A stretch of 64,000 nt of DNA from Azolla caroliniana (GCA_043228905.1 JBHGNT010000005.1:15066001-15130000); one strand, 5' to 3'; positions 14,405-42,345 are shown, counted from the first letter of the stretch. Translations and numbers: made by a program. Notes: a model not told the origin generated them from the sequence alone.

Positions 14405-14448
<44 letters not shown>

Positions 14449-14678: not shown

Positions 14679-14744
14679 AGAACTTAATGGTATGGCTTGA
14701 ACCCATCTAACACAAGATCATGGGTTCAAATCCTTTTGGAGCCA
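14679..14744 (+). promoter_or_regulatory. tRNA-like Pol III A/B-box motif in chromovirus 3' LTR U3 (antisense to the element)
   Basis: GAACTTAATGGTA...AGATCATGGGTTCAAATCC...GGAGCCA, with the B box at 14723-14733. Confidence 0.6.
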
Positions 14745-15862
14745 TATCATGACACTATCCCCCCTTTTAAACGATGAGTGCTACGAGTCATCTTTGATTG
14801 AGGACCAGGTTTGTCTGGATACTGACAATGGAAGTCCTCAAGAAGAGCTTGAGCATTTGCCACATTCTCTACTGGTTCCCAAGTACACTCGCTTGGACTA
14901 TACCCTAGCCAATTGACCAAATAGTAGAGCTTGTTGCGAACAATCTTCGAATCGAGGATGGCAGCAACCTCGTACTCAAGTCCATCTTGAAGTTCGATCG
15001 GGGTGGAGGTGGTGTAATACGATTGGGAATAATGTTGTCCTGATAGGGTTCTAGAAGAGAACTATGAAATAACGGATGTATCCGTAGTTGCAAAGGTAGC
15101 TCAAGGCGAAAAGTGACATTATTAATTTTTCCGTTAATACGGAAAGTCCCTAACCGAGTAGTTTTTATGTGCCATCGTAATAGCCATACACGATCTCCAA
15201 TATCAAAGCAGGATGGAAGCCGATGGCGATCCGCATAATCCTTCTGTGTTTGTTGGGCTTGATGTAGGTGGGTAGATAATTTTGCCTGAATCTTTCATAG
15301 CCACTCCAAATGATTCTCTGCACTAGGATTTGTGGGTAACTTTGGAATTTCTATTACACACTAGTGAGGATGGTAGCCTGTACAAGCATAGAATGGTGTA
15401 ACCCTAGTAGAGATGTTGATAAATTTATTATAAGCAAATTCAACAAAATGTTGAATATCTACCCAATTATCTTGTTGATAGCTTAGAAAACATCGAAGAT
15501 ATTGTTCTAGAATTTGATTTGTACATGCTGCTTGACCATCTGTTTGGGGATGATAGCCGACGGAGAGGTTGCATGTGACCTTGAGAAATTTGAAGAGATG
15601 CTTCCAAAATTTAGAGACGAATTGTGGTCCACGATCACTGATGATACTATCGGGAAGGCCAAGATGCCAAAATATTTCACGCATAACAATTCCTGATGTT
15701 TCTTCACTAGTGATTTCCTTAGTACATGGCAAGAAATGTGCCATCTTAGTATACCAATCAACCATTGTTAAGACCGTGTTGAAGCCCTTCGAATACGGAA
15801 GATCTATAATAAAATCTAGAGAAATAGATTTCCATGGCTTGATGGGGATGGGTAATGGCTCC

Positions 15863-18800
15863 TGTTGAGAATCAAGCTCAACTTGGTCTAGTGTGTGAAC
15901 TCACCTTGAGAATGAATAGACATTCCAACGGTCAAGAGTCACCATTATGTCACCACTTTGTATTCTAGCATTTAGTATGAGTCATAGAATCATATTCTAT
16001 GACACATAACTTATGAGCTTTCACATTCCCCATGCTCCATGAGTCTTGTAGTTAATGAAGAGAGAGGGTGACTATATAAAGCACAATGTTGAGTCTTTCT
16101 CCTTTGTTAATATACTTTTACCTTGCGTATTCTCTATGTCTTATTCCTTGTCTTTCTCACTCTCTCTCTCATACACACACATAACTCACATCTCTTCCGC
16201 TTCACAAGAATCATATCCGATTCTTTACATGGTATAAGAGCGATTTGGTAGCTCGATCTAGCCCATTCGCCTCATCGTGATCGTGTGTTGTGGTCCACGC
16301 TGACGACCAAGAACCGGCTCATCGCTATCGTAGCTTCGCTACCTAGCTCGCATTCGAAGAGAGAAGAAGAAGAAGAAGAAGAAGAAGAATCGACATAATG
16401 AATACTCAAATGGGGAGTGCTCTCCCTACCGAGAAGTTGGATCGAAACAACTTCGCATCTTGGGAGTACAACATGCACCAATACCTTGTCGGACAAGGCT
16501 ATTGGAGCTACATCAAAGGAGCGTATGAAGACCGACCCGCCGAAGCGGCTCCCGGATACGCGACATGAGAGCAAGCCGCAAGCCGCGTGATGTATTGCTT
16601 GGCGACATGTGTTCACGATCACATGCTCGGCTACATTCGCGAAGCCAAGACGCCGAAGGAGGCATGGGAAAATCTACGAAAGATTTTCGCGACGAACACA
16701 ACTGCAACACGGCTTCAACTCCGCCAAGAGTTGAACAACATTCAATAAAGGGACATGTCCATTACGATATACACCTCGAAGATCAAGGAGCTTTGCGATT
16801 CGCTCGGCTCAATAAGTGTAAATATCGATGATGATGAGATGGTTCAAATATGCCTCAACGTCCTCGCACCACGGTTCAGTGCGATGCGAACCGCCGTTCT
16901 AGCACAGGAGAAATCTTCCTCCTTCTTCGAGCTCCAATCAATGCTATTGGTCGAAGAAAACCACGTGCGTACAAGGTGCAATGAGTCGGAAGTCCACATG
17001 CTCTACACGCACTCGAACGGAGGAAGAGGACGCGGATGGTCGAGAGGCCGATTCGGCCAAGGACAAGGCGGACGAGGTCCGACCTACGACAACAACTCCC
17101 AATTTCAGCTACAAAACGGAAGCCAACGAGGAACCTTCGCAAGAAGGGGGAGCTTCCACTCCGGCCCGAACCGTAAAAACACAACCGAATGCGGATATTG
17201 CAGAAAGCTCGGCCACCACGAAGAAGAGTGCCGAAAGAAGATGCATGAATTGGCTTCCACAAGCCGACAACTCACGAATTACGCGCACAACTCCGACTAT
17301 GAAGATCGTGGCGGAATGTATGCACACAACTCCGACCGTGGCAGAATGTATGGGCACAACTCCAACTACGAAGATCGTGGCAGAATGTATGCACACAACT
17401 CCGACCGTGGCGGAATGTTCATGATGAAACATAGAGCAAACTCTATGTTGGCCTCTACCTCAACTAGTGCCTCCGGTCCGGAAGATGTATGGTTCGTCGA
17501 TTCCGGTGCCTCGAACCATATGACATCGCATCAAGAATGGTTCCGAGAACTTCGAGAGCCGGACCGACCCGGCTATGTAGAAACCAGAGACAACACTACA
17601 CACCCGATTCAGCACATCGGCAATGTTCCGTTCGGAAAAGAAGGTAAGAAAAATTACATTAAAAATGTCTTGCATGTACCGACCATTACGAAGAATTTGA
17701 TCTCCGTCGGCCAAATTGTAGAGCAAGGGATGCAAGTTCGATTTAATCAAGGCGGTTGCTTCATCGAAAAAGAGGGCTGACTCATTGCACGCGGATGAAG
17801 AGAGGGCCAAATGTTCATTCTCAACTCACACGAGATGAAATCGACCATGTTCGCAAAGGGCATGAAAGCCGACTCCGACATAGAGTTATGGCACAAGCGG
17901 ATTGGCCATATAAATCTCCAAAAGCTTAAAGCAATGAAATCGAAAGGAGTCGTCATCGGACTCCCAACATTCAAAGAGAAGGAGATTGAAGGTGTATGCG
18001 AAGCGTGCCAATTCGGCAAGCAACACCGACACCCATTCCCGAAAGAGCGGAACGTGAGTAAAGGTCTACTCGACGTAGTCCATTCCGACGTATGGGAACC
18101 GGCACAGACGGCTACATTCGGCGGATGTCGATATAACATGCTCTTCATCAATGACTTTTCTAGGCACACTTGGATCTACCCGATGCGGCAAAAGAGCAAA
18201 GTGTTCAAACACTTCCAAAATTTCAAGAATGAAGTCGAGAAAGCCATGGGTCGACATGTACCATGCCTACGATCGGATGGCGGCAAGGAGTACTTCTCGG
18301 ATGATTTCACGGCGTATCTCTGAAAGGAAGGAATTCGGCGAGAATTCACTTGCCGACACACTCCGCAACAAAACGGGGTAGACGAACGCAAAAATCAGCA
18401 CATCCTCAAAGTAGCGCGGGCCATGATGAACGAGAAGCATATGCCCAAGTCATATTGGGCCGAAGCTGCAAATACGGCCGTCTACCTAATGAACCGGTGC
18501 ACAACATCCGGCGTGCATGAGGTCACTCCGCACGAAAAATACTTCAGAAAGAAGCCGGACTTATCGCACACCCGGATATTCGGCGCGATAGCGTACGTGC
18601 ACATCCCCGACAAGAAGCGTCAAAAGCTTGACCCGAAATGTCGGAGAAATGTATCCTCGTAGGATACTCACTGGAGCAAAAGGGGTACAAGTGCTACAAC
18701 CCCTCAACTCGAAAATCTCGAGTAAGTCGAGACGTCGTTTTTTATGAGTCCGCATCCTAGTACACACCAGAGACAACTCCAACTCTGACTCCGCTCAACC

Positions 18801-20233
18801 CGGAATCCGCCGAACAAGAGATAGAGGATGAAGATCGCCTTACACGCTTGTTCGAAGAAAGTCCAATCACGACCTGACTGAGCGAACCACAAGAGCCTTT
18901 GAGCGATCAAAGCACATCACGGCCTAGCTCGAAGATGGACAAAGGCAAGGCGAAAATGTCGGAATACGAAGACGATCGCTTCAACGACGATGAGTCGACT
19001 CACTCACTCGACAGTGAGTTTGGCGGCTTCAATGTACCAATCGGAGCTAAGAAAGCCCTCATCTCTACAAATGAAAAGCTCCGTCGATCCACCCATGAAA
19101 AGAACCTCGTAAGTCGATTCGGCTACAACGATTATATGGCATACCATTACGCCTTTATGATAAAGGTAGAGACAGTATGGGAGCCGGAAACCTTTTTCGA
19201 AGCCGCGAAGGACCTGCAATGGATCGAAGCAATGAACGAGGAGATGCATGCACTACGGAAGAACGAGACGTGGGATCTCATTCCCACCTCACCGTACAAA
19301 AAGGCAATCGGATGCAGATGGATTTACAAAGTGAAGTACAACGCCGACGGTTCCGTCAACCACTACAAAGCGCGACTCGTAGCAAAAGGCTACGCACAAA
19401 CGCATGGAGTTGACTACGAAGAGACCTTTGCCACGGCGAAAGGGTGGCACCTCCATCAAATGGACGCCAAGAACGCCATTCTACAAGGCGAATTAGAAGA
19501 GGAGGTGTACATGATACAACCACCCAGCTTCAACTCAAGCACCCATCTGAAAGCTATATGCCGACTCAAGAAGCCACTCTACGGCATCAAGCAAACACCG
19601 CGTGCTTGGCATTCAAAGATAACGCTGTCGTGAAGAATTTCGGCCAGAGGCGGAAACCGGGAAACATTGGCTACATCGGCGGGGTGCAGCGTGTGTACGC
19701 ACCCATGTACATTTAGTGTGAATATCGAGGGCGCCTTTATGGCGCCGAAGAGTAGTCAAGTCAGGGCAGACGATCCCATGTAAGTCGGGATTTATCCCAC
19801 ATTGTAACGCATCCCTCTCCTTGTTCTATAAAAGGAAGGGAACGCCCTTTGTGAAAGGGTTGCCCATTTTGCATTAGAGGGTATACCGTTAGATTTAGGG
19901 TTTCTTCTTCTCCTTCTTCTCCCCCCTTCGTGTTTGCTTAGGGTTTGCTTTGGCTCGGCCTCCTGTGCAAGACCCCGCTCGGCCCGACGAGCTGAGAGCT
20001 CCCCGACAGCGGCTTGGCAGCTGACGACTACTGTAACCTACCTTGGAACGGCTCGAAACCGGGAATGTATTCTTCTGTTTATATATATACATTTGCGTCT
20101 GTCTGTGTATATTCGCGTCTCTGTTGGTGTCGGGTGCTCCCCCTTTCCTGCGTTTCCTGTACTTAAGGGTGTGAGTTGGGTTGGCCTGTGTGTGTGCGTG
20201 TGTGAGTGTGTGTGCGTGAGTCGGTGTTAAGCG

Positions 20234-20279
<46 letters not shown>

Positions 20280-21720
20280 TTGGTTGCTTCCGGTGTGCTT
20301 CTGGGATGCCCCGGGAACGGTGAAGCACGACTTCCCACGCTCCATCACTCCCTAGTCCAAGACCCCCGTGGTCCCGCCTTTCTCCACGCACGCGCGTAAC
20401 AACGCGACAACGCAATATCTTCATCAAATCGGCTTCCGTATGTCAAAATCGGACAACTCCCTCTACATATGAAGCGATTCCACAAGTCCGATCGTCATCA
20501 TCTTATATGTGGATGACCTAGTCATTGGAGGTGAGCATCTCATCAAAATCAATAAGGTCAAATCCCTCCTTTCCGACAAGTTCGAGATGACGGACATGAA
20601 GGAGCTCCACTACTTCCTCAGCATCGAGGTAATTCGTACTCCGGCCAAAATCATGATCTCTCAACAACACTACATCCTCAACTTGTTATACAAGTTAGGG
20701 ATGGTTGAGTGCAAATCCGCGGCAACCCTGCTCGATTGCAATCTCAAACTGGATGCAAACTCCGACACCAAAGCGTGTGAGCCGACTCAGTATCGGCAAC
20801 TCATCAGGAGTCTCATCTACCTCATGATCACTCGACCCGAACTCAGTTATCTGGTTGGTCTCCTTAGTCAATTCATGCAAACACCGCGTGATACTCACTT
20901 GGATTGCGCTAAGCGAGTTCTATGATATGTGAGCGGCACAATGGATTGCGGCATCCTCTACAAGACCGCGATGCCAATACGACTCGAGGGATACACAAAC
21001 GCCGATTGGGCCAGCTACAAAGACGATAGAATATCAACCTCCGGATTTGTTTTCTCCCTCGGCAGCGGAGCAATATCCTGGATCAGTAAAAAACAACCAA
21101 TCATCGCTCTTTCGAGCACAGAGGCGTAATATAGGGGCGCAGTAGTGGCCGCATGTGAAGCTGTATGGCTCAAAAGGATACTCAAGGATCTGGGCGTACC
21201 CATCAAGGATCCGACTTCCCTTTATTACGACAACATGAGCAATATCTATCTGGCTCGGAACCCGGTGTTCCACACGCGGACAAAGCACATCGAAGTGCAC
21301 TATCACTTCATTCGAGAGCGTGTTCTAGCTGGCGAAGTCGACCTACAACACATTTGCACAAATCTTCAAACGGTTGACATCTTCACTAAAGCCTTAGGAG
21401 CCGACAAGATGTGGCAATTCATGACCGATCTCGGATTGACGATCCCTGACCTGCCAAGCTTGAGGGGGAGTACTGAAGACATTACGCAATAACGCGTGCA
21501 TTTCACAACCACGCAACGAAGCCGCGAAGAGCTGATCCACCGCGCAAAGTCACGAAGAAAGACGCAAGCCGAAGCACAAACTTCGCAACTACGCACAACG
21601 CAAGCTGGAGCACGGATTCCGCAACTCCGCATAAAGCGAGTCGACGCGAGTCGACGCGGACTCTGGAACGCGAGTCGAAGCGGATTTCGGATACCATCTG
21701 AAACCGACCCTAATAAACCC
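15863..21720 (+). mobile_element. Ty1/Copia element nested in the chromovirus integrase: 5' LTR 15863-16229, Met PBS, gag-PR-INT-RT-RNase H; 3' LTR lost
   Basis: TGTTG...TTACA LTR; PBS TGGTATAAGAGC at 16230; zinc knuckle CGYCRKLGHHEEEC; WFVDSGASNH; LWHKRIGH; YKARLVAKGY; NPVFHTRTKHIEVHYHF. Confidence 0.92.
19626..20409 (+). mobile_element. Solo LTR (TGTCG...CGACA type) inserted in the Copia RT
   Basis: The termini are intact and the TSD is 4-bp ACGC/ACGC. Removing it restores RT (HSKIT|QYLHQIG). TATA box at ~19827. Confidence 0.88.
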
Positions 21721-24700
21721 TAATAAACCATATGGATGATGTTTGGGCATCTTCGCTCTGCAACATGTATCACATGTCTGCACGTAGTCTTCGACAAATC
21801 TTCGCATATGCGGCCATCAAAATGATCGTTGTACTAAATCCAACGTTTTAGTACTACCAAAATGTGCAGTTGTGTATGTGTCATGACAATGTTGAACTAC
21901 TTGAAGATGACATGGACCATTGGGAACATACAAAAGTTGCTTAAAGAAAAGTAATCCATCATGACATTACAATTGTCAATAATCCGTACCTGGTTGTTGT
22001 GACCGTGAGCAGGATGCCCGAGAGGAATCAATTTAATCTAGAATAGCTTGAGCGAAAACATTTGTCTTCAAATCTTCGCGTATGGTATCAATAAGGCGGG
22101 AATCTAATGGAGTTTCAAAAACCAATGTTGCTTGCAATCATGCCGAACCCATGATTACTTGCTTTTTATTTTTGAAGGTCAGATCCCCAGGATGAGGTGC
22201 TAGATACAAGCGTCGTGATAATGCATTTGCCTTCCCTTGTTGCTTGCCCAGAAAATATGTAATCTTGAAGTCGAAACGAGTGAGGAATTGGGCCCACCGA
22301 GCTTGTCGTCTATTTAATACACGAGCATTCTAGAAGTAGGCAAGATTCTTGTCATCACTAAATACAATGACTTGATGAGGAGATCCTTCTAAGAAATGCC
22401 TCCATTGTGCAAAAGAGTCCACTATTGCTAATAGCTCCCTGTCATGTATCTCGTAGTTGATTTCGGTGGTGTCAAATTTGTGTGAGTGGAAAGCTTCGGG
22501 ATGTAGCTTCTCATCATTGCCTCGCTGTGACAAAATACTACTGAGCCCAAAATCCACCAAAATCCGATGCGTCTGCCTCAATGATAAATGGTCTTTGCGG
22601 GTCAAGATGAGTTAGAATAGGGACCGATGTAAATGTTTTTTTGAGATCTACAAAAGTCGTGTCCGCTTAGACCAAGGCACAGTTTGATTTACTTTTTTTT
22701 ATGATAAAAATCATTGGCGCCAAGCGTGAGGTATTCTTTGTAAGTTGTGTGAGAGGCAAAATAAGTTGTGAGTAGTCCTTTACAAACTTGCGATAGAAAT
22801 TTGTGAAACCTAAAAAACATTGTGTATCTCGCAACGAACATGGAGTCTGCCACTCTAACACAATTTAGACCTTAGCTAGATCCATAGAGATTCCTTCCGA
22901 GGAGATGACATAGCCAAGAAATTCCACCTATTTACAATCAAAACTACATTTCTCTAGTTTTGCATAAAGACCATGTTCTCATAGTCGTTTTTAGTACGAA
23001 TACTACATGAGAATCATGCTCTGCTTGTGTCTTTGAATAAACTAGCAGATCATCCAAGTAGATGATAAAACTAATGTCCAAAAGATCTCAAAATATATCA
23101 TTTGTCATGTGTTGGAAAACTCGGGGTGCAGAGGTGAGGCCGAATGGTATAATTGTATATTCAAAGTGCCCATATCGGGTGTGAAAACCTATCTTCCATT
23201 CGTCTCCCGATCAGATCTGTGCGAGGTTATATGCTCCTCGTAAGTTGATCTTAGTGAAAAACATTGCACCATTAATCCTTTCTAGAAGACTCGAGATCAG
23301 AGGAATTGCATACCTATTCCTAATGGTGACTTTATTCAAGCCATGGTAATCCATGACTAGGCGAAGTGATCCATCCTTTTTCTTTACAAAGAAGATGGGT
23401 GTGCCGGCTGGAGATTTCGAATGTCGAATGAACCCATCTGCTAGATTTTCCTCTATGTAGGCTCAAAGAACTTCAAGCTTGCTTGGTGATAAGTTGTCGA
23501 TTGGTCCCCACGGTGGCTCTTTTCCTGGTTGTAAATCAATGGGACAATCATACAGTCAATGTTGAGGAAGAGTACTTGCTTTTACCTTCTCAAAAACTTC
23601 GGCATAATGGTGATACTTCTTCGGAAGTTGAATTGGTGACTCCTCCTTAGTGATACTGGAAGGTTTCACTAATATTACAAATACAAACATTGGTTCCTTG
23701 CGTCCTTCCTCACGCAATTGATGTAGCAAAATGTTTGAAATTTCATGAGTAGATCCTCGAGGTTGACGATACTTGATTTCTCTTGTTCTCCAATCAATTT
23801 TGGGTTGTGTAATTCAAACAATGGTAACCCCAAGACAATTGGATGCTCTGGACTACTAATTATATTAAATGATATTTCGCATGCCAAAATGTCTAGGACA
23901 ACACGAACCAACTCTGACTCTTCTATGATATTTCCAGAAGCAATGGGACAACAATCAATGACTACTACAGAAGTTGGGCAAGGGAGCTTTCTTAGGGATA
24001 TCTGATGAACTTGGGCAAAATTCCTATCCATGAAACAAGAATTGGCTCTAGAATCTAAGACTGTTAAGACATGTACTGGAGGATTACTTTTAGTACTAAC
24101 TGCTACTTGAGCTACGAACACCTTGCTAACTTACTTCGAGGGAATGGAACCACTAATGGGTTGCACAGATTCAGGGTTGTCCAACCAAATGACTCCTATT
24201 TTGGCTAGACTCAATCGTTTATCTCTTCTCTTAGTTGACTAAGGACTTCAAATTTGTTGGATAAACTTGGATTACTAGGATTATCAAACACTCCTAATGA
24301 AATAGACTCGGGTTTAGTACTAACGACTACTTGATTTACCTGTCTTCTTGGCTTATGGGGACAAATTACTACAATATGCTCCGATCCACCGCAATATAGA
24401 CATAGTTGATTTGTTCAGCGTCGTTGCTTTTCCTCTTCCGATAATGGTCCACAACAACTTGTGGTGTTGATTTCCATTGGTGTTGGAGTATTTACTAAAG
24501 ACGCATTATATGACACCCTTGGAAAAGGTTTTACTACAGTTGAGACGTAGGTGGGTGGCATTTGGAACTAACGTTCCAAACATCATTCGAAAAGCCAATT
24601 ATTGCATCGTACCGCTCAATTGATTGCTTTTGTGAGCGACTTTGGTTCTTTGGGGAAAGTCAAGAGTAAATCCTTGACGTCATTACATACTAGGCCATTA

Positions 24701-24989
24701 TTAGCAAATTTGCTCCATCAATGCTTGGTCATCCCAAGGAATATCAGTGGCTAGAAGATGGAAATCCACAGCATAAGCCGAGGTTAGCCGATCACCTTGG
24801 CGCAGTCTTCGGATTTTGTTGATTGCCGTCCTAACGCTATCGGTATCTCCAAAACATGCTTTAAACTTGCTAATAAACTCCTCAAAATTATTAAATTAAC
24901 AAATGAAAGTCTTTTTCTAACAAAGGGGCGAACCATGCCAAAGTTGTGCCACTAAGTAGCGTGCCTACTAGTCCCACTTGTGATCACGT

Positions 24990-25776
24990 TGTCGTAGTGT
25001 ATTTCGTACACTACGTGAAAAAGTAAAAATAATATAACCGATTTAATTACATATAAATAAATAAAATAAGAATATCAAAATATTTATCACGTGCATAGGG
25101 CAAGATTCAAACCTTGTACCTCCACGTAGCCAAACCTCAACTTTATCATTATGCTACCTTATCTTTAGTGTTCTACAAATAGATTTAATAACTATAACTG
25201 CTTTATTTGCGCCTACCTTTATTAAAAGGTAAATCATGTATTTTTAGAGTGCGTGAGTATTTTATAGAAAAACGCAATCAACTAAAAAGTGACTCATGCA
25301 CATCTAGCGTGCATGGGCACTATATTTAGCAAATAAAAGCAAGGATTAGAAAAGCATCACATGCACATTTAGTGTGCATGAACATATTAGAAAAAAGCAT
25401 GTAGCTATGCTTAGTCTCTCCCATCACTATATAAGGATGGGGAGCACAATGTAATAGGTGTGTGAAATATTTGGAAATTGGATATATTTCCGAAAACACC
25501 AACCGATTAATATAATCGTGGGATTCACGAAAATAATATAATCTATACTTGTGGGATTCACAAGTTTCTTATATCTTTCTTTCAATCTAAATACATATTC
25601 TTATCTAAATATTGATTAATTGAATACAATACACTCGTGGGATTCACGAAATTTCTATCTCTCTTCTAATAATCTATTCATTACTAGCCTCATCTCATAT
25701 TCTTCTTTCTCCTAGTCCAAAACCTCGGCGGTTCCCACCCGACTCACGCAATGATCCGGAGCCGAAAGGCACGACA
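24990..25776 (+). mobile_element. Solo LTR (TGTCG...CGACA), same family as 40493-41442, inserted in chromovirus gag
   Basis: The termini are intact, the TSD is 4-bp ACGT/ACGT, and it aligns with 40493-41442 (CACTATATAAGGATGGGGAGCA, CTAGTCCAAAACC). Confidence 0.9.
25085..25157 (-). promoter_or_regulatory. tRNA-like Pol III A/B-box motif in the U3 of the solo LTR (antisense)
   Basis: On the minus strand, TAGCATAATGATA (25156) is followed by GGAGGTACAAGGTTTGAATC. The B box starts at 25113, 43 nt from the A box. Confidence 0.6.
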
Positions 25777-26124: not shown

Positions 26125-26126
26125 AC

Positions 26127-26559
26127 TATCAAGGATAATACTAGAGGCAAGGAGAATTAGTACTAAAGATAGAGAAGAAGAATGAGGATTAGTACTAAGA
26201 AGGGAAAGAGTGTGAGAATCACGAGAGGGGAGAGAGAGAGAGAGAGAACGGTGACAAAAAGAAGTATATTATATTATATGAAGAAAGATACAATAACAAC
26301 TAGGAGGATTACGACTGGTGTTGAACTGAATTGGTTCTAAATAATGTCATGTGCCTCTACTTATAGTATTGTTAGGAATACTCCTGAAGTTTCTAGAATG
26401 TTCCAGAGTAATCTGGAATATACATGAATTTCCTATAGTGAAATAATAAATGAAAATAATATATTTCGTATTATAATGCATAGTTTAATGGTATGGCTTC
26501 AACTCGTGTGATACAAGGTCATGGGTTCGAATAAATGATTTTGGAGCCATATCATGACA
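26127..26559 (-). repeat. 5' LTR of the chromovirus
   Basis: Aligns end to end with 13770-13890 plus 14405-14754. Confidence 0.9.
26481..26549 (+). promoter_or_regulatory. tRNA-like Pol III A/B-box motif in chromovirus 5' LTR U3 (antisense)
   Basis: TAGTTTAATGGTA (26481) is followed by AGGTCATGGGTTCGAAT. The B box starts at 26524, 43 nt from the A box. Confidence 0.65.
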
Positions 26560-27116: not shown

Positions 27117-27119
27117 GGG

Positions 27120-29269: not shown

Positions 29270-29599
29270 ACATACATATATATATATATATATATACGAA
29301 TATATATATCTATGTATATACATATACATATACATATATCATATATGTATGTCGTGCGATGATATATGTATATCGTGCGCGCGCGCGGGTGCTTCCTCAC
29401 CGACACACTCACCGTCGACCGAGTCACCACCCTCTCCTCTATTCGTCTGTTCTTGCTCAGCTCTCTCTCACTTGATATGTGTTTTGTTATGTATGTGTGT
29501 GTGTTGTACATATGTAAGAGGAGAGGGACGACGACAAAGAAGAAGCACACACGGTCTGTCTCACTCACTCAACTAACTTTCATAAGTAATCCTATTAGG

Positions 29600-29648
<49 letters not shown>

Positions 29649-29700
29649 CAGAATCTTTCATATACATACATACACATATATAATATATATATATATATAA
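29270..29700. repeat. Microsatellite cluster, (TA)n and (GA)n, in the RLK promoter/5' UTR region
   Basis: (TA)n at ~29276-29295, (GA)n at ~29604-29647 and (TA)n at ~29683-29699, directly upstream of the ATG. Confidence 0.9.
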
Positions 29701-29774
29701 AAGACACATACACAAACCATCAGTCTTCTTATTCATCTAGTCAATCATCCTCATCCTCATCATCCAAGCTGCAA

Positions 29775-31458
29775 ATGACGGTCGATAGATCCTTCTACCA
29801 CTACAGCTACATCATCCTCTTCTTCATCTCCTCCACTTACTGGTGCTACTGCTCATATCATCTCATATGTTTGTGCGATGCCTTTGTCAATCTCAACGAC
29901 ATTAACCCCGGCCTTCCTCCTCCTCCTTCATTATCCTTGACATTTTGGAATGACACGGACACCCTCTTACGATTTAAGGCCACAGCTGTTGTAGCTGCAG
30001 GTAGTGCCGGCCATGGCGCTCTGAGTAGCTGGAATACGTCGGATTGCTGCGCAGAAAACCCGTCGACGTGGGTTGGAGTGAGGTGCGGCGGGGCAGCAGG
30101 CAACAGCAGCAGCAGCAGCAGCAGCAGGAGGAGGAGGAGGAGGGTATGGAAGCTGTCTCTGAAGGGCATGCAGCTGCGTGGCAGTATCCAGGCCCTGACA
30201 TCCCTCACGGAGCTGAGGGTGCTGAGCCTCCCCGAGAACCAATTGGATGTGGAGGTGGAGGTGGAGGTGGGACAGTGGAGCCGCCTGGGGCTTTTGAACC
30301 TCTCCTCCAACCACTTGTGGGGCCCAATCCCGGATGCCATCTCCTCTCTCACTCGCCTCCGGAGGCTGGACCTCTCCCGGAATGCGTTAAACGGACCCAT
30401 TCCACCTCACATCAACTCCTTGACTCGCCTCTTGACGCTGGACCTCCACCACAACGCTCTCACTGGTCCCCTTCCCATGCTCTCTTTGCCCCTCCTCAAA
30501 GACCTCCGCCTTCAGTACAATAATCTCAGCGGTCAACTCCCTCCTCAACTCTTGCGACGCTTCCCGCTCTCCTCCTTCATTGGGAACCCTAATCTATGCC
30601 TCCCCTCTTCCTCTTCCTCTTCCTCCTCCTGCAACTCCAATGCCAATGCCAGTGTAAGCAGCAGCCGCAGTGGAGGCGTCGTTAGTAGCAACCCATCTAC
30701 ACCAATGTATAGCAGTTACTACCACATTCCTCCATCATCCACCACCCCTACATACAGTGGGCGTGGAGGGGACGGGTCTCCCAAACATAACCCCAGCAAA
30801 CTGAGCTTTGGTGTCATTATTGCTATTGTTACCGTGGATATGATTGTTATCCTTTTCTTAGCTCTCACTTTCTTGCTGTATTACTGGAAGAAAGTCAAGA
30901 TCCTTTGTGATTTTTGTGGTGGTGGTGGTGGTGGTGAGGAAGATGGAAGCCGCCAATCATCACCAACTCTTAAGCCTGGATCCCATCACCTGCCTAGTAC
31001 CTTCCAATCGGGCCACCAAGAAGACGGTGAGAAGAGCAGCACGCTCGTGTTCTTGGATGCCATGAGCGCATTTCCTTGCAGGAGGTTTGAATTAGAGGAT
31101 TTGTTGAGATCGTCGGCAGAGATGCTGGGGAAGGGGAGCTTTGGGACGACCTACAAGGCAGTGTTGGGAGATGGCTACGCAGTGGCTGTCAAGCGCTTGA
31201 AGGATGTTGTGCTCATAGATGATGATCATCATCAACAATGCAGGTATAGCACTACTACTACTACTACTACTGATGATGATGATGATGCTGATGGGTCAAG
31301 GACAGTACTAGAGTTGTTCGAGCAATGCATAGAGACAATCGGTAGGCTCAATGATCACCCCAATATTGTGCCCTTGCGAGCCTACTACTGCGCCACAGAT
31401 GAGAAGCTCCTCATCTATGATTTCATGCCCAATGGCAATCTTTTCAGCCTTCTCCATG
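29775..31458 (+). CDS. LRR receptor-like kinase (LRR-III, At1g68400/RLK902-like), exon 1
   Basis: Hydrophobic N-terminus, LRRNT (W..SDCC...WVGVRC), ~5 LRRs, transmembrane segment [24 protein letters not shown], and [27 protein letters not shown]...[10 protein letters not shown] donor at 31459 after LLHG, the conserved LRR-III intron position. Confidence 0.93.
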
Positions 31459-32511
31459 GTATTCTCCTCTCCTTCCTCTCTTTTTCTTATTGGAGCTTTC
31501 TAGCGTTCACTACACAAGGGAGGTTATTCATTGCAGTGAACTTGAACTTGAACACATTGTTTTGGTGTTAGTTTTATCTTCTTAGTGAATTAAACCAACA
31601 TTTTTGTCGCAGCTCTTTGCCATTTACGTTTCATCATCAATTTTTTTAGTAATTAATCAACTCCATCCCTTCCCTTCCTTGGCTTGAAGAAGAAGAAGAA
31701 GAAGAAGAAGTAGGAGTAAGAGTAGGAGTAGTGGAGTCAAGAGTTTGCACTGTCCCACCGCCAGCGTGGAAATGGACATGATCAGACAGACATAGCATGG
31801 AATAGTTGAAGCGGATAAGAACATTAGAGCTTCCCAAAGACGTTTAGTGGCTGCCCATCCGTGCTGTAAAATGATGGCAATCTGTCCTTGGGCCCCATCC
31901 ATCAGATCGCAACTGATCTCTAGCGGACGTTTTAAGGATGTCTATCTATCTATCTATCTATCCACCTCGCCTGTAGGTAGAGACGTTAAAACGTTAAAGT
32001 CAGAATTAGATTGGCTCATCAATCAAGCCTATGCCAGAACTTTAGAGACTTCTCTTATTACAGCAAGTGCTTGCCATGAAAAAACAGGATGATTTCGAAA
32101 ATGCTGTAAAGACTACTTCTCTCACAAGAAGTGGTTGCAAAACCAAGGCCGGTGGTGGGATGTTGTGACTGAATTTCAAGGCTCGTATTGGTAGCTTCCA
32201 ACTATCTATTCAAGAAGAGAATAGTGGTTCTTGTTATTGTACACATTGGTTTTATATCCTATTAATTTTAGTTACAGAATGCATTGATTACCTATATTAC
32301 CAATGTGCTTAGGTGTAGGAAGTTCTACACAACAGACAAGGCAAAGAGGTCAAAACTAATGTGATTGGGATTGTGCTTCCCAGTCCATGTGTTCTGCACC
32401 ATCAACATTGTCAAGGGGTGGGTATTCTGCAAGATGTTTGAAAGGCTCTACTTTTATTTCCCACCCAGGGTGGTTGTACCGTGTTGGAATGATGTAGCTT
32501 TGACTATCTCG

Positions 32512-32560
<49 letters not shown>

Positions 32561-33829
32561 AATAGTTTTGACCTCATAGGTCACAAGTATGTCGGAACAG
32601 GTGTTCCTTCTATTGCGTTTGGAATCAATGCTCCTTACTCTCATCTATAATGTAGTAATAATATATTTGCTGAAGATTTCTATATACCAAATTCAAGATT
32701 GCTTCCAGTTCAATTTGTATATGTCAGCCTTTATGTTGAGGTGCTTAATAACCTGAAAATTAAGATAAAGAACATACTTAACACAACTCATAAGCCAGTC
32801 AGGTCACAATGTATATAATATATTCAGATAACATTCACTTACACACATCATACTAGCCAAATACCATTGTTGTTCAGCACAATATCTCATGCTATGCTGC
32901 TTATAACTTTTCTCTTAATTAATACTTGGAGTCAAAAACATGGTTTAGTATGATGCAAACAGAGAACATGGTCATTTCGATAAATATATAAAGATATATG
33001 TATAAAGATATATGTATGTATTATCTATGTATACATATATATATATATATTTGTATATATGTATGTAGATACGCATGGATAGGTAATGTTAAACTTAAAA
33101 GTAATATGGCGCACACGCATCTATACATAAAGCATATCATGCACAGATATATACAGCATATCCTTCTATGTATACACACTATGGAGGGATGTAATAATAT
33201 TGTTGGAGCTACATCGAGAATTGAGATCTGCAATAATCCACGCGCGTGCACGCATACGCACACACCAAATACGAAAAAGATGGTAAATTACATCTTTTAA
33301 AAATAGTCTCTTTCTTTCCTGAGTGTTAGTGAGTACTTTGCTTTTCCGTCTCATCAGACAGAGTCAGAGAGAGAGAGAGAGAGGTGGGGGTTTTAAAATG
33401 TTTGTTTATATAAAGAGGAAGAGTTTGTTGTGTGTGCGTAGCTGGGGCCTTCCTTCGTTGGATGGCCATGTCATGCCATGTTCTTGGGTTTGCTTTATGT
33501 GCCCGCGCGCTGTGTGTCCTTCCTCGGTCAGTCGTACGAGGCCTTGTACTTTTGGAAATGATATTCTTTTGAGCAGATAAATTTCTTTAATTGAATATGT
33601 TTTGACTCTCTTAGTTACGATTTCTTTTACATATGTACTTGTATTTGTGGTACATATAATGTGACAGCAGAACAGGAATGCATATGAATTTTCTATTCCA
33701 AATTCAAGTTCATCCAAACTTCTCACGAAGTAAGGAGGGAAGTTTGGCATAATGTAGATATGTATCATCATAGTATGCCTTTTCATCCAACTTGTAACTT
33801 AGCCTGCATAAGGATAACTATGTATGCAG

Positions 33830-34464
33830 GAAACCGAGGAATGGATGGAGCTGAAGTCAATTGGGTGAACCGTGTGAAGATAGCATTGGGGGTAGCAAGA
33901 GCATTGGCACACATACACGAAGTAGGCAAGGTACCCCATGGCAACTTAAGGTCCTCCAATGTCCTCCTAGATAAAGATGGTAATGCACGTGTTGGGGATT
34001 CCTTCCTGACAAGGCTAATAAATCCAAGTCTAGTATCGTCCAGGCTGGTGGGGTACCGGGCACCAGAGGCTAACAATAAGGACTCGTTAGGTTTTATCAC
34101 TCATCAGGCCGACATTTACAGCTTTGGTGTTCTTCTCCTTGAGATTCTCACCGGAAAGCCACCAACACAATCCCTACATGATGGTGTAGATCTCCCCAAG
34201 TGGGTGCAATCGGTGATAAAGGAGGGCTTGATCGACCAAGTCTTCGATGATGAACTCGTGCACTACAAAAACATCAAGGAGCAAATGGTCTCGTTGCTTC
34301 AGATTGCCATGGCTTGTGCATCTCTCTCCCCTTTTGAAAGACCAAAAATGAGTCAAGTCGTAAAAGTGATAGAGGATATGGTTAGGCCTGATCACCATAT
34401 GCCTTTGGTCTCTGATCCCTGTTCAGGTTTGGAGAGGGCTGGGAATTCTAGCCATGTAATGTAA
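33830..34464 (+). CDS. LRR receptor-like kinase, exon 2 (kinase C-lobe); spliced CDS 2319 nt / 772 aa
   Basis: The acceptor TGCAG| at 33829 restores LLHG|NRG in frame. Motifs HGNLRSSNVLL, GYRAPE, ADIYSFGVLLLEILTGK and ERPKMSQVV; stop at 34464. Confidence 0.93.
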
Positions 34465-35199: not shown

Positions 35200-35772
35200 T
35201 GTGGGCATATGTTCAACTATTTGGTAATTCCTCACATAACACGACCTATTTTGGTATCTCTTACCATACATGCATGCATAATGGTTAAGGAGGAATAGTT
35301 GCACTTTGAGGATACATCCAAATGCTAACTATGTGTTGTCTGAAGATAAAGATTATTATGTCAAAGCTCATTGAACATTAAAGTATTATCTTTTTATATA
35401 ATAGTAGCCACCTAGAAGATTGCCTCCATTTTGAATGTTCAAAACTAACCCTTAAGAATCATCTGTGACATTAGTAAAATAGTTAAATTTGAAGATATAT
35501 GCAAATGATGTAAACACGAAGGTTTTGCTATGATGGTAAATATAGCGTCAGGCCCTAAATGGAACTACCAAGCATCGAGATGGCTGTTTCTGCCATTGAC
35601 TTCCATGAATGGACAGGAGTTGTAAATATGTGGTCACCATGTACAAAGTGTTAGCGGGATACTTTTGTTGTAAATAGTAGGGTGGGGATTATGTTGTTTT
35701 GATTATGGCTGATCTTTGATGTACTTCTTTTGCTAACTAATGGGAAGTAGTGTTTTTTTTGGAAAAAAAAAA
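35200..35772 (+). mobile_element. Possible highly decayed L1-like LINE 3' end
   Basis: PKWNYQASRWLFLP at ~35554-35595 resembles the terminal motif at ~27560. An A-run follows at 35763-35772. The left boundary is uncertain. Confidence 0.4.
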
Positions 35773-36029
35773 CACGAATGTTTTGCTTTTGCCGTATTCA
35801 AGTTATGGATTGGGTTAACGCATTATTTTTGATATAATGAATAGATAACTTAAAGATTGATTACCTTGGGATCTCAATTGAGATCTTATAGACTTTGACA
35901 AGCATTGTCATGGAAGGGCAAACACAAAAGACATATGCATGATGCATTAATTGTTCATGTTTTCGTGAAGTTATGCGTGTGCGTGTGAAATTTGAGAGGA
36001 ACCATACAGACTTGAATTGGATAGGATGG

Positions 36030-36850
36030 GTAACTCGAAGGCTAGGCAGAGTCGAAAGCTCCTAGGAGTCGAAAGGTCACTAGACTCGAAGGCTCATTGG
36101 AGTCGAAGGCTCCTCAAAGTAGAGCCGATGAGAAGATAGTTTGAAGGTAAGGCTAAGTTGAAAAGAAGACAAAGTCGAAGGTAAGGCAGAGTTGAAAGTA
36201 AGACAGAGTTGAAGGTAAGATAGAGTCATAGGTAAGGTAGAGTCGAAGGGATTAGCCCAAAGAGCATGAGATTATGAATGAATTTCACAATATTGAGTCT
36301 AGGTTGGCCACTTTATAGGTTGAAAATGCAAGATTAAGAAAGAAATTCCTTTTATAAAATAAGGTTTGCTATATCTTAAGGTAAATGATTACAAAAGTGG
36401 TAATTTTTAAAAATAAAACAAAAACTAAGAACCCTAAAATTCATGAAAAAGAAGAAAATAAAACCTAAGATCTCAAGTGTGTTGAGGAGAAGAGAAAAGA
36501 TGGAGGAAAAAATATTAAATAGAGGAGATAAGTTCACGAGTAGAGTTTCCTTTAGTTTCAGTGCAACATCCCACCAAACGATGACCACGTCGCCCCTTGT
36601 AAATGCTGGTCTTCCACGCCCTCTTGATTCGTAACCCTAGCTCTCTAGCTTTTGAATTTGGTAGCATGTCCGTGTCTCTCCTTTTTCATCCCCCCAATAA
36701 TTTGGCTACTTCATCCTTTTATAGGATTCAAGAGGCTCTCTCACGAACAAAATTAGTGAATACTTTTTTATTTTAGCATGCACCATGCTTTTTTTTCACT
36801 TGCACACTCATAGAACAAGCTTTTAGCAATTGAGCTAAGACTTTTTTATT
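36030..36850 (-). repeat. Gypsy LTR remnant, an inverted homolog of 38171-39070, with a degenerate ~20-bp array
   Basis: 36565-36645 is the reverse complement of ~38487-38570. The GAGTCGAAGG array at 36030-36250 mirrors the CTTCGACTC array at 38910-39060. Confidence 0.7.
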
Positions 36851-36914
36851 ATTTTTAAATACAAATTGTTATTTGTCCCTCATACCACACCCTCAATCTA
36901 CAATTCATTTTTAT

Positions 36915-39070
36915 TGCACGAGAAGACCTCACAAACCAGGTAGAAGGAAAGGTTCTAAAAAATAAGACCATTACAACGGTGTGCAAACTTCTCTTGGAGG
37001 ATGTGATATGTCGATATGGAGTTGGATGCGAATGAATCTAAAGAGTTATTTTCATGTCTTGAAGTTAAACTCTTCCTTACAAATGCATACAACCTACAGG
37101 CAAATGGAAAGATAGAGTGAGGGCATAGCCCGATAGTCCAGGCACTCGTTTGAGCATGTGCGGGAAAGATTGTAGATTGACCCTGACTACTATCTTATGC
37201 TTTGCGGGCAGATATAGCTACCCATAGCTTTGTGAACTGAAGTACCCATAACTTATGTATGGTCAAACACCTATTAAGCTCATTGAGGAATCGATCACAT
37301 CATGGGTGTCAATGCCATGGGATTATGAAATGAGTAGAGAGGACCTATTGGATATGTGTCACAACGTTGACATGTATATGAGATTAAATTCGCTAGATGG
37401 CACTGTGGGATATAGGGGTTGAACCCACGACCTCGTGGTCTCCATTGGGCATCCTTACATAACATTTAAATTGATGCATTGTATGTTGAACACTAGAAAC
37501 TTCTAGAGAATGCATCCTCATGCATTCTCTAGTAGTTTCCTAGATTGTATGCATTCACATGCATTCTCTAGAATATTCCTAGCTTGCATGCATGCCTCCA
37601 CCTTCTTGTATAAATACTTGGGCGTACCTTGATTCCAATAAAGGTGAACAACACTAGTTACAAAAGTATAAGTTAAGTTCTTGTTCTCTTTCTCTCGTCT
37701 CTTTTCTCTCTTGGTATTAAGTCTCTTCTTGGTTCTGCTCTATTCTACTCGTCCATGACACTCTGCGGATACGACAACTTGAAAGACACTAGGAGCACTT
37801 AAAGTTGGCATTCTTTCTAATAAAAGAGGCTAGACTCTGTAATAAGGGAAGATTTGAATGAACACATCGTCTATGTCTGAAGAAGATTGAAGAAGGGTTT
37901 TTTGTGATTGTCTATGGCAGCCGTTTAGACAACAAACATAGTACAATGAAAAAGTTTGCAAAGCAATGGTTTGGGCTATACATGGCAATGAAAGATAATG
38001 ATAATGCTACCTACCACCCCACGAAGTTAGAGGGAACAAGGTTGGTGATACAAATAACCGGGAAGAGAATCCAGAAACTCAAGAAATAGAAGGACGAAGA
38101 ACCATACATTGAAGAATGACGAAGAATTGGACGTGGTGAATGGAGGACGTGCAAGTTTGGTGGGGGTGGACGTCGTGATGTGGGGAGAATATAGGAGGAA
38201 ATAAGTTGAATTAGGAATATTAAAAAGGTTGAATGATCAATTGAAGGTGTGATAAAAAAGACATAATTTGAGTTAGAGTTAAATATAACCAATAAAAAAC
38301 CATTACTAGGCATCAAAAGGAAAAGTAGAGCATGTAAGTATAAAAGAAAGCAGGGTGCACGCTAAAATAAAAACACACCCACTAACTTTATTCATGTGAG
38401 AGCCTCTTTCATCCTATAAGACGAGGACACAACAAAATGGGAGGAAGAAAGAGTGAGACAAAGAAGCTCTGTCAGATTGTAAAGTGAAGCTAGGGTTGCG
38501 AATGAAGAGGGCGTAAGACCAACATATACAAGAGGCGGCATGGTTGTCGTCGTTGGGACACTCGTGGACCTCGCCTCAAAGCTCTACTTGTGAACTTAAC
38601 TTATCCAATTATTCTTTTCTTCTTCTTCTCCACAACATACTTGTTGTCTTAGGGTTTTATTTTTCTTCTTTTCCTAAAATTTAACATTCTTCATTTATGT
38701 TTAATTTCTAGAATTTATCATCATTGTCATGAATCTCAAAAAAAAGTTGAATCCGTAATTTATAAAGGGAATTTCATTCTCAATCTAGCGTTTTTGGACC
38801 TAATATTGTGAAATCTCTTCCTAATCACATGATCTTTGTACTAATCACATGTTTCCTTCATAATCTCGTGTGTTAATTTCTGTTCGGTTTGTTTCTTTGT
38901 TTGACTTTAACGAACTCTTGACTTTGACCTACCTTCGACTCTCTAGAGCCTGCGACTCTGATCTACTTTCAACTTTGCAGAGTGTTCGACTCTGAATTAC
39001 CTTCAACTCTATAGAGCACCTTCGAGTCTACATAATCTTTGACTCTTACATTCGACTCTAACTTATCTTC
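36915..39070 (+). mobile_element. Non-chromovirus Gypsy integrase fragment, PPT and 3' LTR
   Basis: AREDLTNQVEGK...; IVYGSRLDNKHSTMKKFAKQWFG; PPT GGTGGGGGTGGA at ~38159-38170, then the LTR. Confidence 0.8.
37357..37760 (+). mobile_element. Solo LTR (TGTCA...TGACA) inserted in the Gypsy integrase
   Basis: The termini are intact, TATAAAT is at ~37609, and the TSD is decayed (ATATG/CTCTG). Removing it restores an EDLL.(L/M)RIRQLE-like motif. Confidence 0.78.
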
Positions 39071-39074
39071 TCTA

Positions 39075-39581
39075 CTTACAAAATAAATTATAATGTGAAT
39101 AACCTAATGGCTAAAGTTAAGTGTTCTCTTTGAGGAGATTATTGCCGAATTATTGGTTCGAGTCACCCTAAACCTAATGGGGGTTTATCTACTCATATGA
39201 CACCATCCCCCTCCTTTGATGACGAGTTTCATGAGTTGTAATGCATGAATTGAGACTCGGCTTATCTAGATATTGGCAATGAGATTCAACTACCAGGTTA
39301 GAGGCATTATCAAGGTTCTCGGTGGGCTCCCAACTACAATAATTAGGTGTATACCTTAACGGATCCACGAGAAATTTAAACTTCTTATGTACTATCTTGG
39401 ATTCCAAAACAATTTTAACTTCAAAATCTGGGCCATCAACATGTTGAATCAGAGGTGAAGGTGGAACAACCCAATCTGGATTGGAATTACAAATGTAAGA
39501 ATCCAACAATGAGACATGAAATACTAGGTGTAGATGTATGTGTGGAGGTAGATCAAGGCAGAATGCAACATCATTGATTTG
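39075..39581 (-). mobile_element. Second chromovirus 3' end: chromodomain, PPT and truncated LTR
   Basis: FEVKIVLESKIVHKKFKFLV...CSWEPTENL chromodomain; PPT at 39203-39216; LTR starts TGTCATATG at 39202. Confidence 0.82.
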
Positions 39582-40492
39582 TGTTGAGCGGACAAGCTCA
39601 ACCGAATCCGGGTCGGTTGAATAAGCCTGAGCCGTATCGGTATCCGGAATGGAGAACTGGATAGGTATTCGGATCGGTATGTCCGATCAGAGAGACAGAT
39701 TGGATTGTAACCGGTAGGCCATTAGAGGCCTACAATCCTATTCTAGTACGTAGGTAGATTCCTTGGAGTTAGTGTCAGTCACTCGTATGAGCATTGAAGT
39801 ACTTGTCAGTCCTTTTAAGGACTTGTATAAAAAGTGTTTTGTAGGACATTTGTATGTACAAAGTATTATTATTTTGAATTCAGTTTATGCTATTCTGCCC
39901 TCTCTGTCTCTCTGTTCTGGTGTTATCCGGACTAGCCGATTTTGTCTTGGCTTCTGCACATTACCTTTTACATGGTATCAGAGCGTGAGGGTTGAGAACC
40001 TCTGCAGCCGACAAGTGCTTTTCAAAGACAAACCCTAATATCCGGTAGAGAACAGAAATCAAGAAGGTTAGAATAGACCGAGGAATGGCTAGCTTGCTTC
40101 CGATGGAGAAGCTCGACAGATCCAACTATGCATCTTGTCGTACAAGATGCACTAGTACTTGCTCGAGCATGGTTATTGAAGTTATATCGACGGAGCTAAC
40201 GATACGGCACCTGATGCGGCACATAGGGACTTCCCGGCTTGGGAACAAGCGGGAAGTAGAGATATGTACTGCTTTGTGTCCAGTGTCGGCGGTCAGCTGC
40301 TGAACCATATACAAGACGCCAAGATGTCAAAGGAAGCTTGGGGAAACCTGAAGAAGGTATTCGCCGCAAGCACCACGACCCATAAGCTGCAACTTCGGCA
40401 GGATTAAGCAATGTCCGACAAAAGGACATGTCGGTGGCCGAATACACGGCCTGTATCAAAGACATCTACGACTCACTTGCCTCCATCAACGT
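39582..40492 (+). mobile_element. Copia 5' LTR (39582-39972), Met PBS and gag start, truncated by a Gypsy insertion
   Basis: TGTTG...TTACA termini; TGGTATCAGAGC at 39973; MASLLPMEKLDRSNYAS. Confidence 0.88.
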
Positions 40493-42345
40493 TTTTGAAG
40501 CGTATTTCATACACTACGTGAAAAATGTATAAAGTACCCGATTTAATAAATATGAAGAAAACGAAGAAAATATTAGAATAAATGTTACATGCATAAGGCA
40601 ATATTCAAAACCTTGCACCTCCATGTTAATAAATTAAAGTCGTACCATTACACTAACACATAATGAGTGTTAAGAAAATAGATATCCCACATAGAAAGGT
40701 CAGTTCACGCATATTTTCTAGAAAAAAACTTTCGTTAGAAGAAATACACATGATAGAAAAAAACTACACATGCACATCTAGCGTGCATAAACACTATAGT
40801 CGATAAAAAATGCATGAGGTTAGAAAAAGCATGTTAGAGAAAGCATATGGTCTATAGATAGAAAAAGCATGGATTGCTAAGACTCTCTCATCACTATATA
40901 AGGATGGGGAGCAAATTGTAATAAGGTTGTTGATTCTTGGGTTTTTGATTACATTCTATAGATAGAAAAAGCATGGATTGCTAAGACTCTCTCATCACTA
41001 TATAAGGATGGGGAGCAAATTGTAATAAGGTTGTTGATTCTTGGGTTTTTGATTACGTTCTATAGATAGAAAAAGCATGGATTGCTAAGACTCTCTCATC
41101 ACTATATAAGGATGGGGAGCAAATTGTAATAAGGTTGTTGATTCTTGGGTTTTTGATTACGTTCTAAATATTGATTAATATAATACTTGTGGGATTCACA
41201 AGTCTTGATCTCTTTTCTCAATCTACTCTAATATACTCTAAACAATTTTAATTTATTACTATGATTTTAAATATTAAGTTAAACTAGATCACTATATTCG
41301 TAGGATTCACGAATTCCCATCTCTCTTTCTTGGAATCTATTTATATTCTTATTAGCCTTAAAACTCTCCTCCTCCTCCTAGTCCAAAACCCCAACAGTTC
41401 CCACCCAACTCACACAATGATTTGGTGCCGAAAGACACGACACAATTGGTGAACCCGATGTGAAAACAGGTGGCAAGGAGATGGAGAATCAACAAGAGGA
41501 TAGCAACATGATGACGATGTTCGAGCGGATGCTACAAGAACAACACGCGATGTTAGAGATTGCAAAGACAATGGAGCGGCTCATGCAACGGAACAGGAAA
41601 TTCAACGGGAAGGATGTGTCACGTTATTTGCGGGACTACAAGGCGGAGATGCTACGGTGCGGAATATGGGAAGGATTGCAAGTAACATCCTTCAATTGAG
41701 TGGCTACTGATGGGCTTCAAGGGAGTATCCACAGGATACGACAACAAAATCCGACGTGTGGGGGGGGGGAGGGGGTTGGGGTTTGAAGAAGCGTTGAAGA
41801 CTACATTTGCTATCGAGGACTCCTCCAAGGCAACGTGGAGAGGATTCGAAGATTACGTGGAAACACTGGACAAGGGGTTGAAGGTCCTCGATGTGTTTTC
41901 GGCATTTAAAAGTCGATTCAAAAGCTATCCTTGTACGAGATAAAGTGATCATGTTCTTACGAGCCTTGGATGTCCGGGACCGGAAAGATCTTGGAGTACT
42001 TCTAGAGGATACGACTACTAAGAGTGGCGTCACCAATACATGGGAAAATGTGGGGGACATCGTTGCATGATACACAAAGAGGAGGCAATGGCTCGGTAAT
42101 GAATAAAAGAGAATTTCGGAACCAATCTTGAGACCAAGACCCGGATTGGTAGATCACCAACCACGACCTTGGGAGACTGCAAACGAAAAGGGAATCGATG
42201 CAACCACGGTGGAGCAATTGCTGAAGGAGATGGAAAATCTCAAGACTGCTACAGTGAAGAAATCGGAAGACCGTCCCATGAGTTCCAAGTATATGGAGCG
42301 TTGATGCATATGGTGTGATAACACCGAACATGATCAGAAAGATTG
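40493..42345 (+). mobile_element. Non-chromovirus Gypsy 5' LTR (40493-41442), tRNA-Trp PBS and gag
   Basis: The LTR matches 24990-25776. PBS TGGTGAACCCGATGTGA at 41447 is complementary to the plant tRNA-Trp 3' end. gag reads MENQQ...FNGKDVSRYLRDY. Confidence 0.85.
40852..41166 (+). repeat. Near-perfect 104-bp tandem triplication containing the LTR TATA box
   Basis: Units start at 40852, 40956 and 41060. Confidence 0.92.

Follow-up and report, generated by a model that had tools for sequence, protein, structure and literature searches.

An antisense tRNA-like module in the U3 of Azolla caroliniana Gypsy retrotransposons, a candidate TFIIIC-binding site

RNA polymerase III (Pol III) promoters in long terminal repeats (LTRs) have been described for short non-autonomous elements that make their own RNA, and a backward-facing promoter of this type in full-length elements transcribed by RNA polymerase II (Pol II) needs another purpose. 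This question is raised by a 64,000-nucleotide stretch of Azolla caroliniana DNA (GCA_043228905.1 JBHGNT010000005.1:15066001-15130000), the whole of which we call the window and in which nested Copia and Gypsy elements surround a leucine-rich repeat (LRR) kinase gene. An initial annotation of the window reported six LTR copies with a tRNA-like promoter motif (A box and B box) in the unique 3′ region (U3) of the LTR, always antisense to the element. We find that the antisense module is real and occurs genome-wide, and its pattern of sequence conservation indicates that it is probably under selection.

All six motifs lie where they had been placed, and each is antisense to its element. Minus-strand chromodomain sequence and polypurine tracts (PPTs) orient the pair of modules at 14680 and 26481 and the module at 39100, and the solo LTR with the motif at 37415 is oriented through PPT-bearing relatives. 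The modules at 25103 and 40601 had been assigned to a pair of Gypsy LTRs with a tRNA-Trp primer-binding site (PBS); a plus-strand Trp PBS at 41447 does orient both, but the 25103 module belongs to a solo LTR (24990-25776) whose target duplication is ACGT. Two peculiarities turned out to be private to the window copies. The spacing at 39100, once read as that of a tRNA with a long variable arm, results from an 11-nt insertion that leaves 24 other copies normally spaced, and the motif at 37415, described as a B box only, lost its A box by deletion. The view that these are not tRNA genes holds: neither ARAGORN nor Rfam called a tRNA in the window, ARAGORN called none in 24 of 24 LTR loci, and stem pairing equals a cross-family null (below). 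Rfam gave no 5S match in the window either. When the A and B boxes were scored with weight matrices derived from 73 tRNA sequences in the same genome, six matches in the window reached at least 20, whereas 20 shuffles averaged 0.5, and three of the six are sites of the initial annotation; at a score of at least 14 there is no excess (11 matches versus 9.3 in shuffles). The window alone is thus modest evidence, and the case rests on family copies.

Module presence was judged by eye at each family locus, and family statistics are column counts over natural copies, not family consensus LTRs. In the first chromovirus family (F1, that of the 14680/26481 pair) every one of 30 loci carries the module, as does every one of 30 in the family of the 25103 LTR (F2a); in the family of the 39100 LTR (F3) it is present at all 25 loci, out of 30, that cover the LTR start. 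In F4, the family of the 37415 solo LTR, the A box is found in 18 of the 29 loci other than the window copy; three loci (L098, L114 and L119) have a different segment in its place and lack the module, and the remaining loci are deleted, unaligned or represent a free element described below. Both LTRs of young elements (98–99.9% LTR identity) carry the module between shared flanks, which, together with its shared polarity and near-absence from Copia, upholds the earlier proposal that it is an integral part of the LTR. Independent insertions of short interspersed elements (SINEs), each with its own target-site duplication (TSD) and tail and restricted to some copies, would look different, since nearly all copies carry the module and share its flanks.

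A search of the 523-Mb genome with one tight A/B pattern returned 7,853 places, compared with 1 for the reversed pattern. Among the first 30 of these loci, 29 belong to LTR families, with orientation given by PPT, PBS or family for 27 and by resemblance for 2, and one resembles a tRNA gene by eye. LTRs were also anchored independently of the motif, by PPT or chromodomain, and required to reach a B-centred score of at least 8 within the first 90 nt. Of the chromovirus LTRs, 21 of the 30 anchored by PPT and 28 of the 29 anchored by chromodomain passed with an antisense match, as opposed to 2 and 0 with a sense match and 0.3–0.7% of shuffles. The corresponding Copia counts were 1 of 23 and 0 of 15, and one of the 23 clustered with chromovirus LTRs. 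Four sense matches in Copia loci were set aside: three are nested Gypsy LTRs, and the fourth is weak (16.1) and lies upstream of the LTR. Evenly spaced sequence totalling 600 kb contained 26 matches, versus 0–2 in shuffles, which by reading comprise 19 tRNA genes or decayed copies, 5 LTRs and 2 instances of the free element. A metagenome survey covered 80 loci, 33 of them with a locatable LTR start. Three (L314, L318 and L319, the last two sharing one LTR) carry the antisense module at 57–68% protein identity, L313 has the B box and L312 has none; the module was found in 0 of 28 more distant metagenome loci, and no relative was found in viral contigs.

The features that are conserved within the module indicate what may be selected. 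Across 20 family representatives (positions follow the usual tRNA numbering convention), positions 52–56, 58 and 61 are constant at 95–100%, the A-box core, G19 apart, at 85–100% and an AGGT at 44–47, outside the matrix, at 85–95%; positions 25–43, the anticodon arm, are only 30–70% constant. Stem pairing shows no excess over cross-family mixtures (acceptor 0.39 versus 0.36, D 0.66 versus 0.68, anticodon 0.39 versus 0.41, T 0.69 versus 0.68). Constant letters and unconserved pairing thus suggest that what is selected is the letters and their spacing and not an RNA fold. The invariant tRNA positions of the B box are present, as expected for an extra-TFIIIC site, and are broken in part of F2a. 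Box columns are less variable than other columns in three families (F6, F3 and F1). A four-T terminator lies within ~35 nt in 6 of the 20 representatives.

The B-box CpG provides a further view of this conservation. A CpG can decay on either strand, and CA is tolerated in tRNA boxes. In anchored copies, 25 CA were observed at this site versus 2 TG. Among 100 listed of 724 F2a matches there are 36 CG, 37 CA, 25 TG and 2 CT, and the 23 F2a LTR pairs found among the listed matches comprise 11 CA/CA, 6 CG/CG, 2 TG/TG, 1 CT/CT and 3 CG/TG. The skew of CA over TG fits selection. Evidence for protection of this CpG from methylation is mixed, the site being better kept in F6 and F3 and worse in F2a.

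Elements that carry the module fall into two lineages. F1, F3 and F4 are chromoviruses with the chromodomain at the integrase end, and relatives with intact ends have, after the 5′ LTR, an 11-nt site complementary to their own LTR ~32 nt past the TATA box, a self-priming site seen in F5 and F4 (L201–L203, L207). A chromodomain and self-priming are described for Tcn1 chromoviruses (PMC6317226, PMC2864245). F2 elements have a Trp PBS and 4-bp NCGN target duplications (ACGT, CCGT, GCGT and CCGG in Phygy-like elements), and the frames of L152 gave no Chromo match; Phygy is described as having a Trp PBS, an NCGN target and no chromodomain (PMC6317226, PMC2864245). The labels Tcn1-like and Phygy-like are assigned by features, not by a tree with reference elements, and a Phygy-like integrase tree of only 7 rows was uninformative. 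The accessible text of PMC6317226 gives both lineages as confined to mosses and club-mosses, a range that by itself would make a moss the likely host. Module-bearing elements are 3.6–8 kb long, some with reverse transcriptase, RNase H and integrase frames, and those that are Phygy-like form an AT-rich subset. The distance from module to LTR end is 6–62 nt for chromoviruses and 113–380 nt for Phygy-like LTRs, and the module stands back-to-back with a Pol II TATA box that sits ~90–270 nt behind it. The copies in the window are listed in Table 1.

Table 1. Module-bearing LTRs of the window and the features that accompany them.
Feature	Position	Strand	Remarks
5′ LTR, Tcn1-like chromovirus family F1	26127..26559	-	no tRNA PBS after LTR
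Antisense A box-AGGT-B box module, F1 5′ LTR	26481..26534	+	score 20.6
3′ LTR, same F1 element	13770..14754	-	split by insertion ~13893-14417
Antisense module, F1 3′ LTR	14680..14733	+	score 23.1; four-T run after B box
F1 PPT, chromodomain, SH3 and integrase core (broken frames)	14750..15900	-	fix F1 orientation
Solo LTR, Phygy-like family F2a, inserted in F1	24990..25776	+	4-bp TSD ACGT
Antisense module, F2a	25103..25156	-	score 16.2; C56T in B box, G19A in A box
5′ LTR (outer end decayed) and Trp PBS (from 41447), Phygy-like family F2b	40490..41464	+	
Antisense module, F2b	40601..40655	-	B box decayed, score 11.8; relative L108 intact, 28.6
Antisense module, 3′ LTR of chromovirus F3	39100..39165	+	11-nt private insertion
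F3 LTR start (39202), PPT, chromodomain, SH3	39192..39686	-	
Solo LTR, chromovirus family F4	37357..37760	+	TATA box at 37609
B box and AGGT of F4	37415..37434	-	A box deleted in this copy only; score 9.5

Other features of these LTRs and their surroundings were observed along the way. A second B-like box, in the anticodon arm or as a short duplication, occurs in several modules (window 14693-14744; L006, L249, L156 and L313), and the F1 module also scores weakly in sense. In one Phygy-like LTR (L230:2132-2561; L185) a second, decayed antisense module lies upstream and a sense A/B match (24.0) lies downstream of the TATA box, and GC-rich module-less Trp-PBS LTRs (L423, L425, L428–L431, L440–L442, L445 and L449) have a weak sense B-box match (~16) ~60 nt before the LTR end. 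Between module and TATA box, the module-bearing LTRs of both lineages have an AT-rich U3 with repeated CATGCA-type motifs (window 37500-37600 and 25290-25400), hinting at a shared cassette. The F2b LTR contains three tandem 104-bp repeats (window 40851-41174) with a TATA region in each, and the F4 solo LTR is flanked by an inverted pair of segments that are 69% identical (window 36250-36796 and 38342-38846). The LRR receptor-like kinase gene lies between the element clusters at window positions 29586-34461. Tandem tRNA gene arrays, many of which include decayed copies, were found at L258, L121, L138, L139 and L254 (types Ala, with a 1191-bp unit, Lys/Asn, Ile, Arg and Asn/Thr); the possibility that the tRNA-Ala array is an array of terminal-repeat retrotransposons of miniature size (TRIMs) was checked and rejected.

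The youngest intact family, F5, encodes a gag of 341 aa and a pol of 1199 aa between LTRs that are 99.7–100% identical. Its B box occupies LTR nt 6–16, inside a terminal hairpin, and its A box has decayed to half; F5 and the related G2 group have both lost the A-box GG and kept the B box. The hairpin with which the LTR of this young chromovirus opens (L201–L203, L173–L200) is 8 bp long and encloses the B box, and the element has the 11-nt self-priming site. When the 3′ LTR and pol end of one F5 copy were compared with contigs of four other sequencing runs, the last 23 nt had no listed difference in any of the four, and the preceding 76 nt varied at 18 places. One RNA-library contig spans the F5 box, but it may be DNA, and strand and start are not readable from contigs.

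Clues to the origin of the module come from a free relative. The initial annotation had suggested looking for a SINE family with the same head, and a ~205-bp SINE-like element with the F4 head is indeed present within GA repeats (2,193 first-look candidates, 40 scored). It starts 13–15 nt before the A box and has a second, opposite tRNA-like head and an A/GA-rich tail; the two heads are convergent, and partial tandem copies are frequent (L391–L420; L223:3809-3863; L228:1193-1247). The element looks like a SINE, which suggests past Pol III promoter activity of the F4 head. After removal of 7 ambiguous rows, a tree of the remaining 62 (of 69) over 108 columns gave no resolved direction between LTR and SINE, and a free relative is known for F4 only, the modules of other families being without one. 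Inter-box sequences show relatedness both inside each lineage and across the two (z 8.7, 9.0 and 5.8) and resemble tRNAs in 20 of 24 LTR representatives (shuffle p≤0.05), with best source-tRNA matches that vary by family (Lys, Thr, Ile, Arg and Gly, from a set of 19 types with no nuclear Trp). Given this relatedness, a single old capture, or two, followed by transfer would fit as well as the repeated acquisition put forward in the initial annotation.

What, then, is the module for? We put at about even the chance that it is kept as a TFIIIC-binding site on DNA and serves, at the 5′ LTR promoter's outer edge, as a chromatin barrier. This interpretation draws on an analogy to Schizosaccharomyces pombe, in which B boxes act as boundaries and boundary activity is partly due to them (PMC4502379), and the sequence itself favours a TFIIIC site over transcription. 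The module would have been captured early in the Tcn1-like lineage of the host, with a tRNA gene or the head of a SINE as its source, and then either transferred to a Phygy-like subset or captured by it in parallel. Its U3 position would cause it to be copied into both LTRs in each round of reverse transcription. TFIIIC bound to it would limit heterochromatin silencing of the LTR Pol II promoter, and outward Pol III firing from modules with an intact A box would probably be a by-product. A broader proposition, which we advance only tentatively, is that autonomous, Pol II-driven Ty3/Gypsy elements of two distant lineages carry a portable TFIIIC barrier in U3 and seed thousands of TFIIIC sites, and that a SINE arose from the outward Pol III promoter in one LTR family.

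Other functions would predict different patterns. The selected product might be outward Pol III transcription itself, yielding a short RNA or open-chromatin bubble at the 5′ LTR or an antisense RNA into PPT and integrase at the 3′ LTR and so tuning the element. A full A box with tRNA spacing is retained in many families, and the start of the free element 13–15 nt before the A box is where Pol III would be expected to start; the loss of the A-box GG in F5 and G2, which keep the B box, and the scarcity of nearby four-T terminators (6 of 20 representatives) nonetheless make this somewhat unlikely. A neutral history, in which old tRNA or SINE heads captured in U3 are merely inherited and their antisense polarity tolerated, would explain the frequent losses (the L098/L114/L119 subfamily, the L199 family and most Phygy-like families), the inheritance of C56T in F2a and the still tRNA-like inter-box sequence of 20 of 24 LTR representatives. 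We regard such a history as unlikely, however, because boxes and spacing persist while the intervening and surrounding sequence has diverged, CA outnumbers TG at the same CpG, box columns are less variable in three families and related elements in other samples retain the module at 57–68% protein identity.

Two further explanations invoke the replication cycle. In sense RNA the module is complementary to the D, variable and T loops of tRNA and might anneal a tRNA for strand transfer or packaging, a role reportedly proposed for HIV-1 U3/R, which would account for the strict antisense polarity and U3 position; a fixed C56 with G57A allowed also suits G-U wobble. Yet chromoviruses self-prime from the 11-nt site (L201–L203, L207), Phygy-like modules match the 3′ part of the Trp primer at only 4–7 of 15 letters, G52 (20/20) and G53 (19/20) are G although wobble would permit A, and no single tRNA type suits all families, so that we consider an RNA role very improbable. 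TFIIIC on cDNA ends might alternatively steer or tether integration, much as yeast Ty1 targets via the Pol III machinery (PMC12786077). The chromovirus B box lies close enough to the LTR end (6–62 nt, and in F5 within the terminal hairpin) to be compatible with this idea, but the 113–380 nt that separate the Phygy-like box from that end render it scarcely credible.

A number of observations weigh against a selected TFIIIC barrier. In S. pombe, B-box loss alone is mild (PMC4502379). The B-box change C56T occurs in 25 of the 100 F2a copies listed (of 724) and is common to 20 of 33 copies near the F2a window copy, and its sharing among copies implies that a broken B box is inherited through transposition. 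Box columns, which are less variable than others in F6, F3 and F1, are not clearly so in F5 and F2a, and the unchanged terminal block of F5 is an integrase end too. The strict A+B score is passed by only 8 of 30 PPT-anchored and 8 of 30 chromodomain-anchored LTRs, as the A box has decayed in several groups. Most Trp-PBS families, which have GC-rich LTRs, are without the module (2 weak isolated matches in 30 position-ordered loci), which is family-wide in 2 of 18 Trp-PBS clusters, and Copia thrives without it. The test is also partly circular, the matrix having been the means of finding some families and the AGGT term deriving from the 20-representative comparison, and the copies are not independent.

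If the module is a barrier, it would provide a testable answer to how chromodomain retrotransposons remain transcribable in silent chromatin, and its copies, of which at least 7,853 look intact, could influence where TFIIIC binds and where chromatin borders lie genome-wide. Module-less families and copies with a broken B box provide natural controls in the same genome.

Antisense tRNA-type promoters in autonomous Gypsy LTRs were not found described in a literature search that had most subscription papers and Repbase notes outside it. The U3/R of HIV-1 reportedly holds a tRNA3Lys-like sequence that matches its primer tRNA. Both cases involve tRNA-like sequence within U3, whereas the elements described here have no tRNA primer or a module unmatched to it. 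A tRNA dimer has been reported at the PBS of one mosquito element (PMC3286476). The accessible descriptions of the Tcn1 LTR differ from ours in giving TATA and CAAT boxes and no tRNA-like module (PMC6317226, PMC2864245). Cassandra TRIMs resemble the present elements in having a Pol III promoter inside plant LTRs, but that promoter is of the 5S type and drives the RNA of a non-autonomous element (PMC10886601, PMC12786077), whereas the module is tRNA-type. The IR-L and IR-R repeats of S. pombe likewise have B boxes that act as DNA elements at the edge of heterochromatin; these are fixed host boundaries not borne by retrotransposons (PMC4502379), and the barrier role proposed here is putative.

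The closest parallel is provided by the Helenus TRIMs (Kojima 2024, PMC10886601), which PMC13570524, in its accessible part, merely cites. Helenus LTRs contain tRNA-derived sequence that is conserved around boxes A and B and unlikely to be a working tRNA, as is the case here (PMC10886601). These elements, including TRIMp3, are non-autonomous and span 311–1263 bp, and their autonomous partners are said to be bound to use canonical Pol II promoters (PMC10886601). The module-bearing elements of A. caroliniana differ in being 3.6–8 kb long, in including an intact family and in having the module beside a TATA box. In Helenus, moreover, the tRNA-like sequence is in sense in LTRs of Selaginella and of two wasp families (PMC10886601), whereas the module described here is antisense. 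The same paper mentions similarity to tRNAs in "not a few LTRs" of Repbase, and leaves these undescribed in its accessible text (PMC10886601); given this remark, the antisense LTR module may have been seen before without being described. What is new relative to Helenus is thus the size, autonomy and polarity of the system, and the principle of a captured promoter is common to both.

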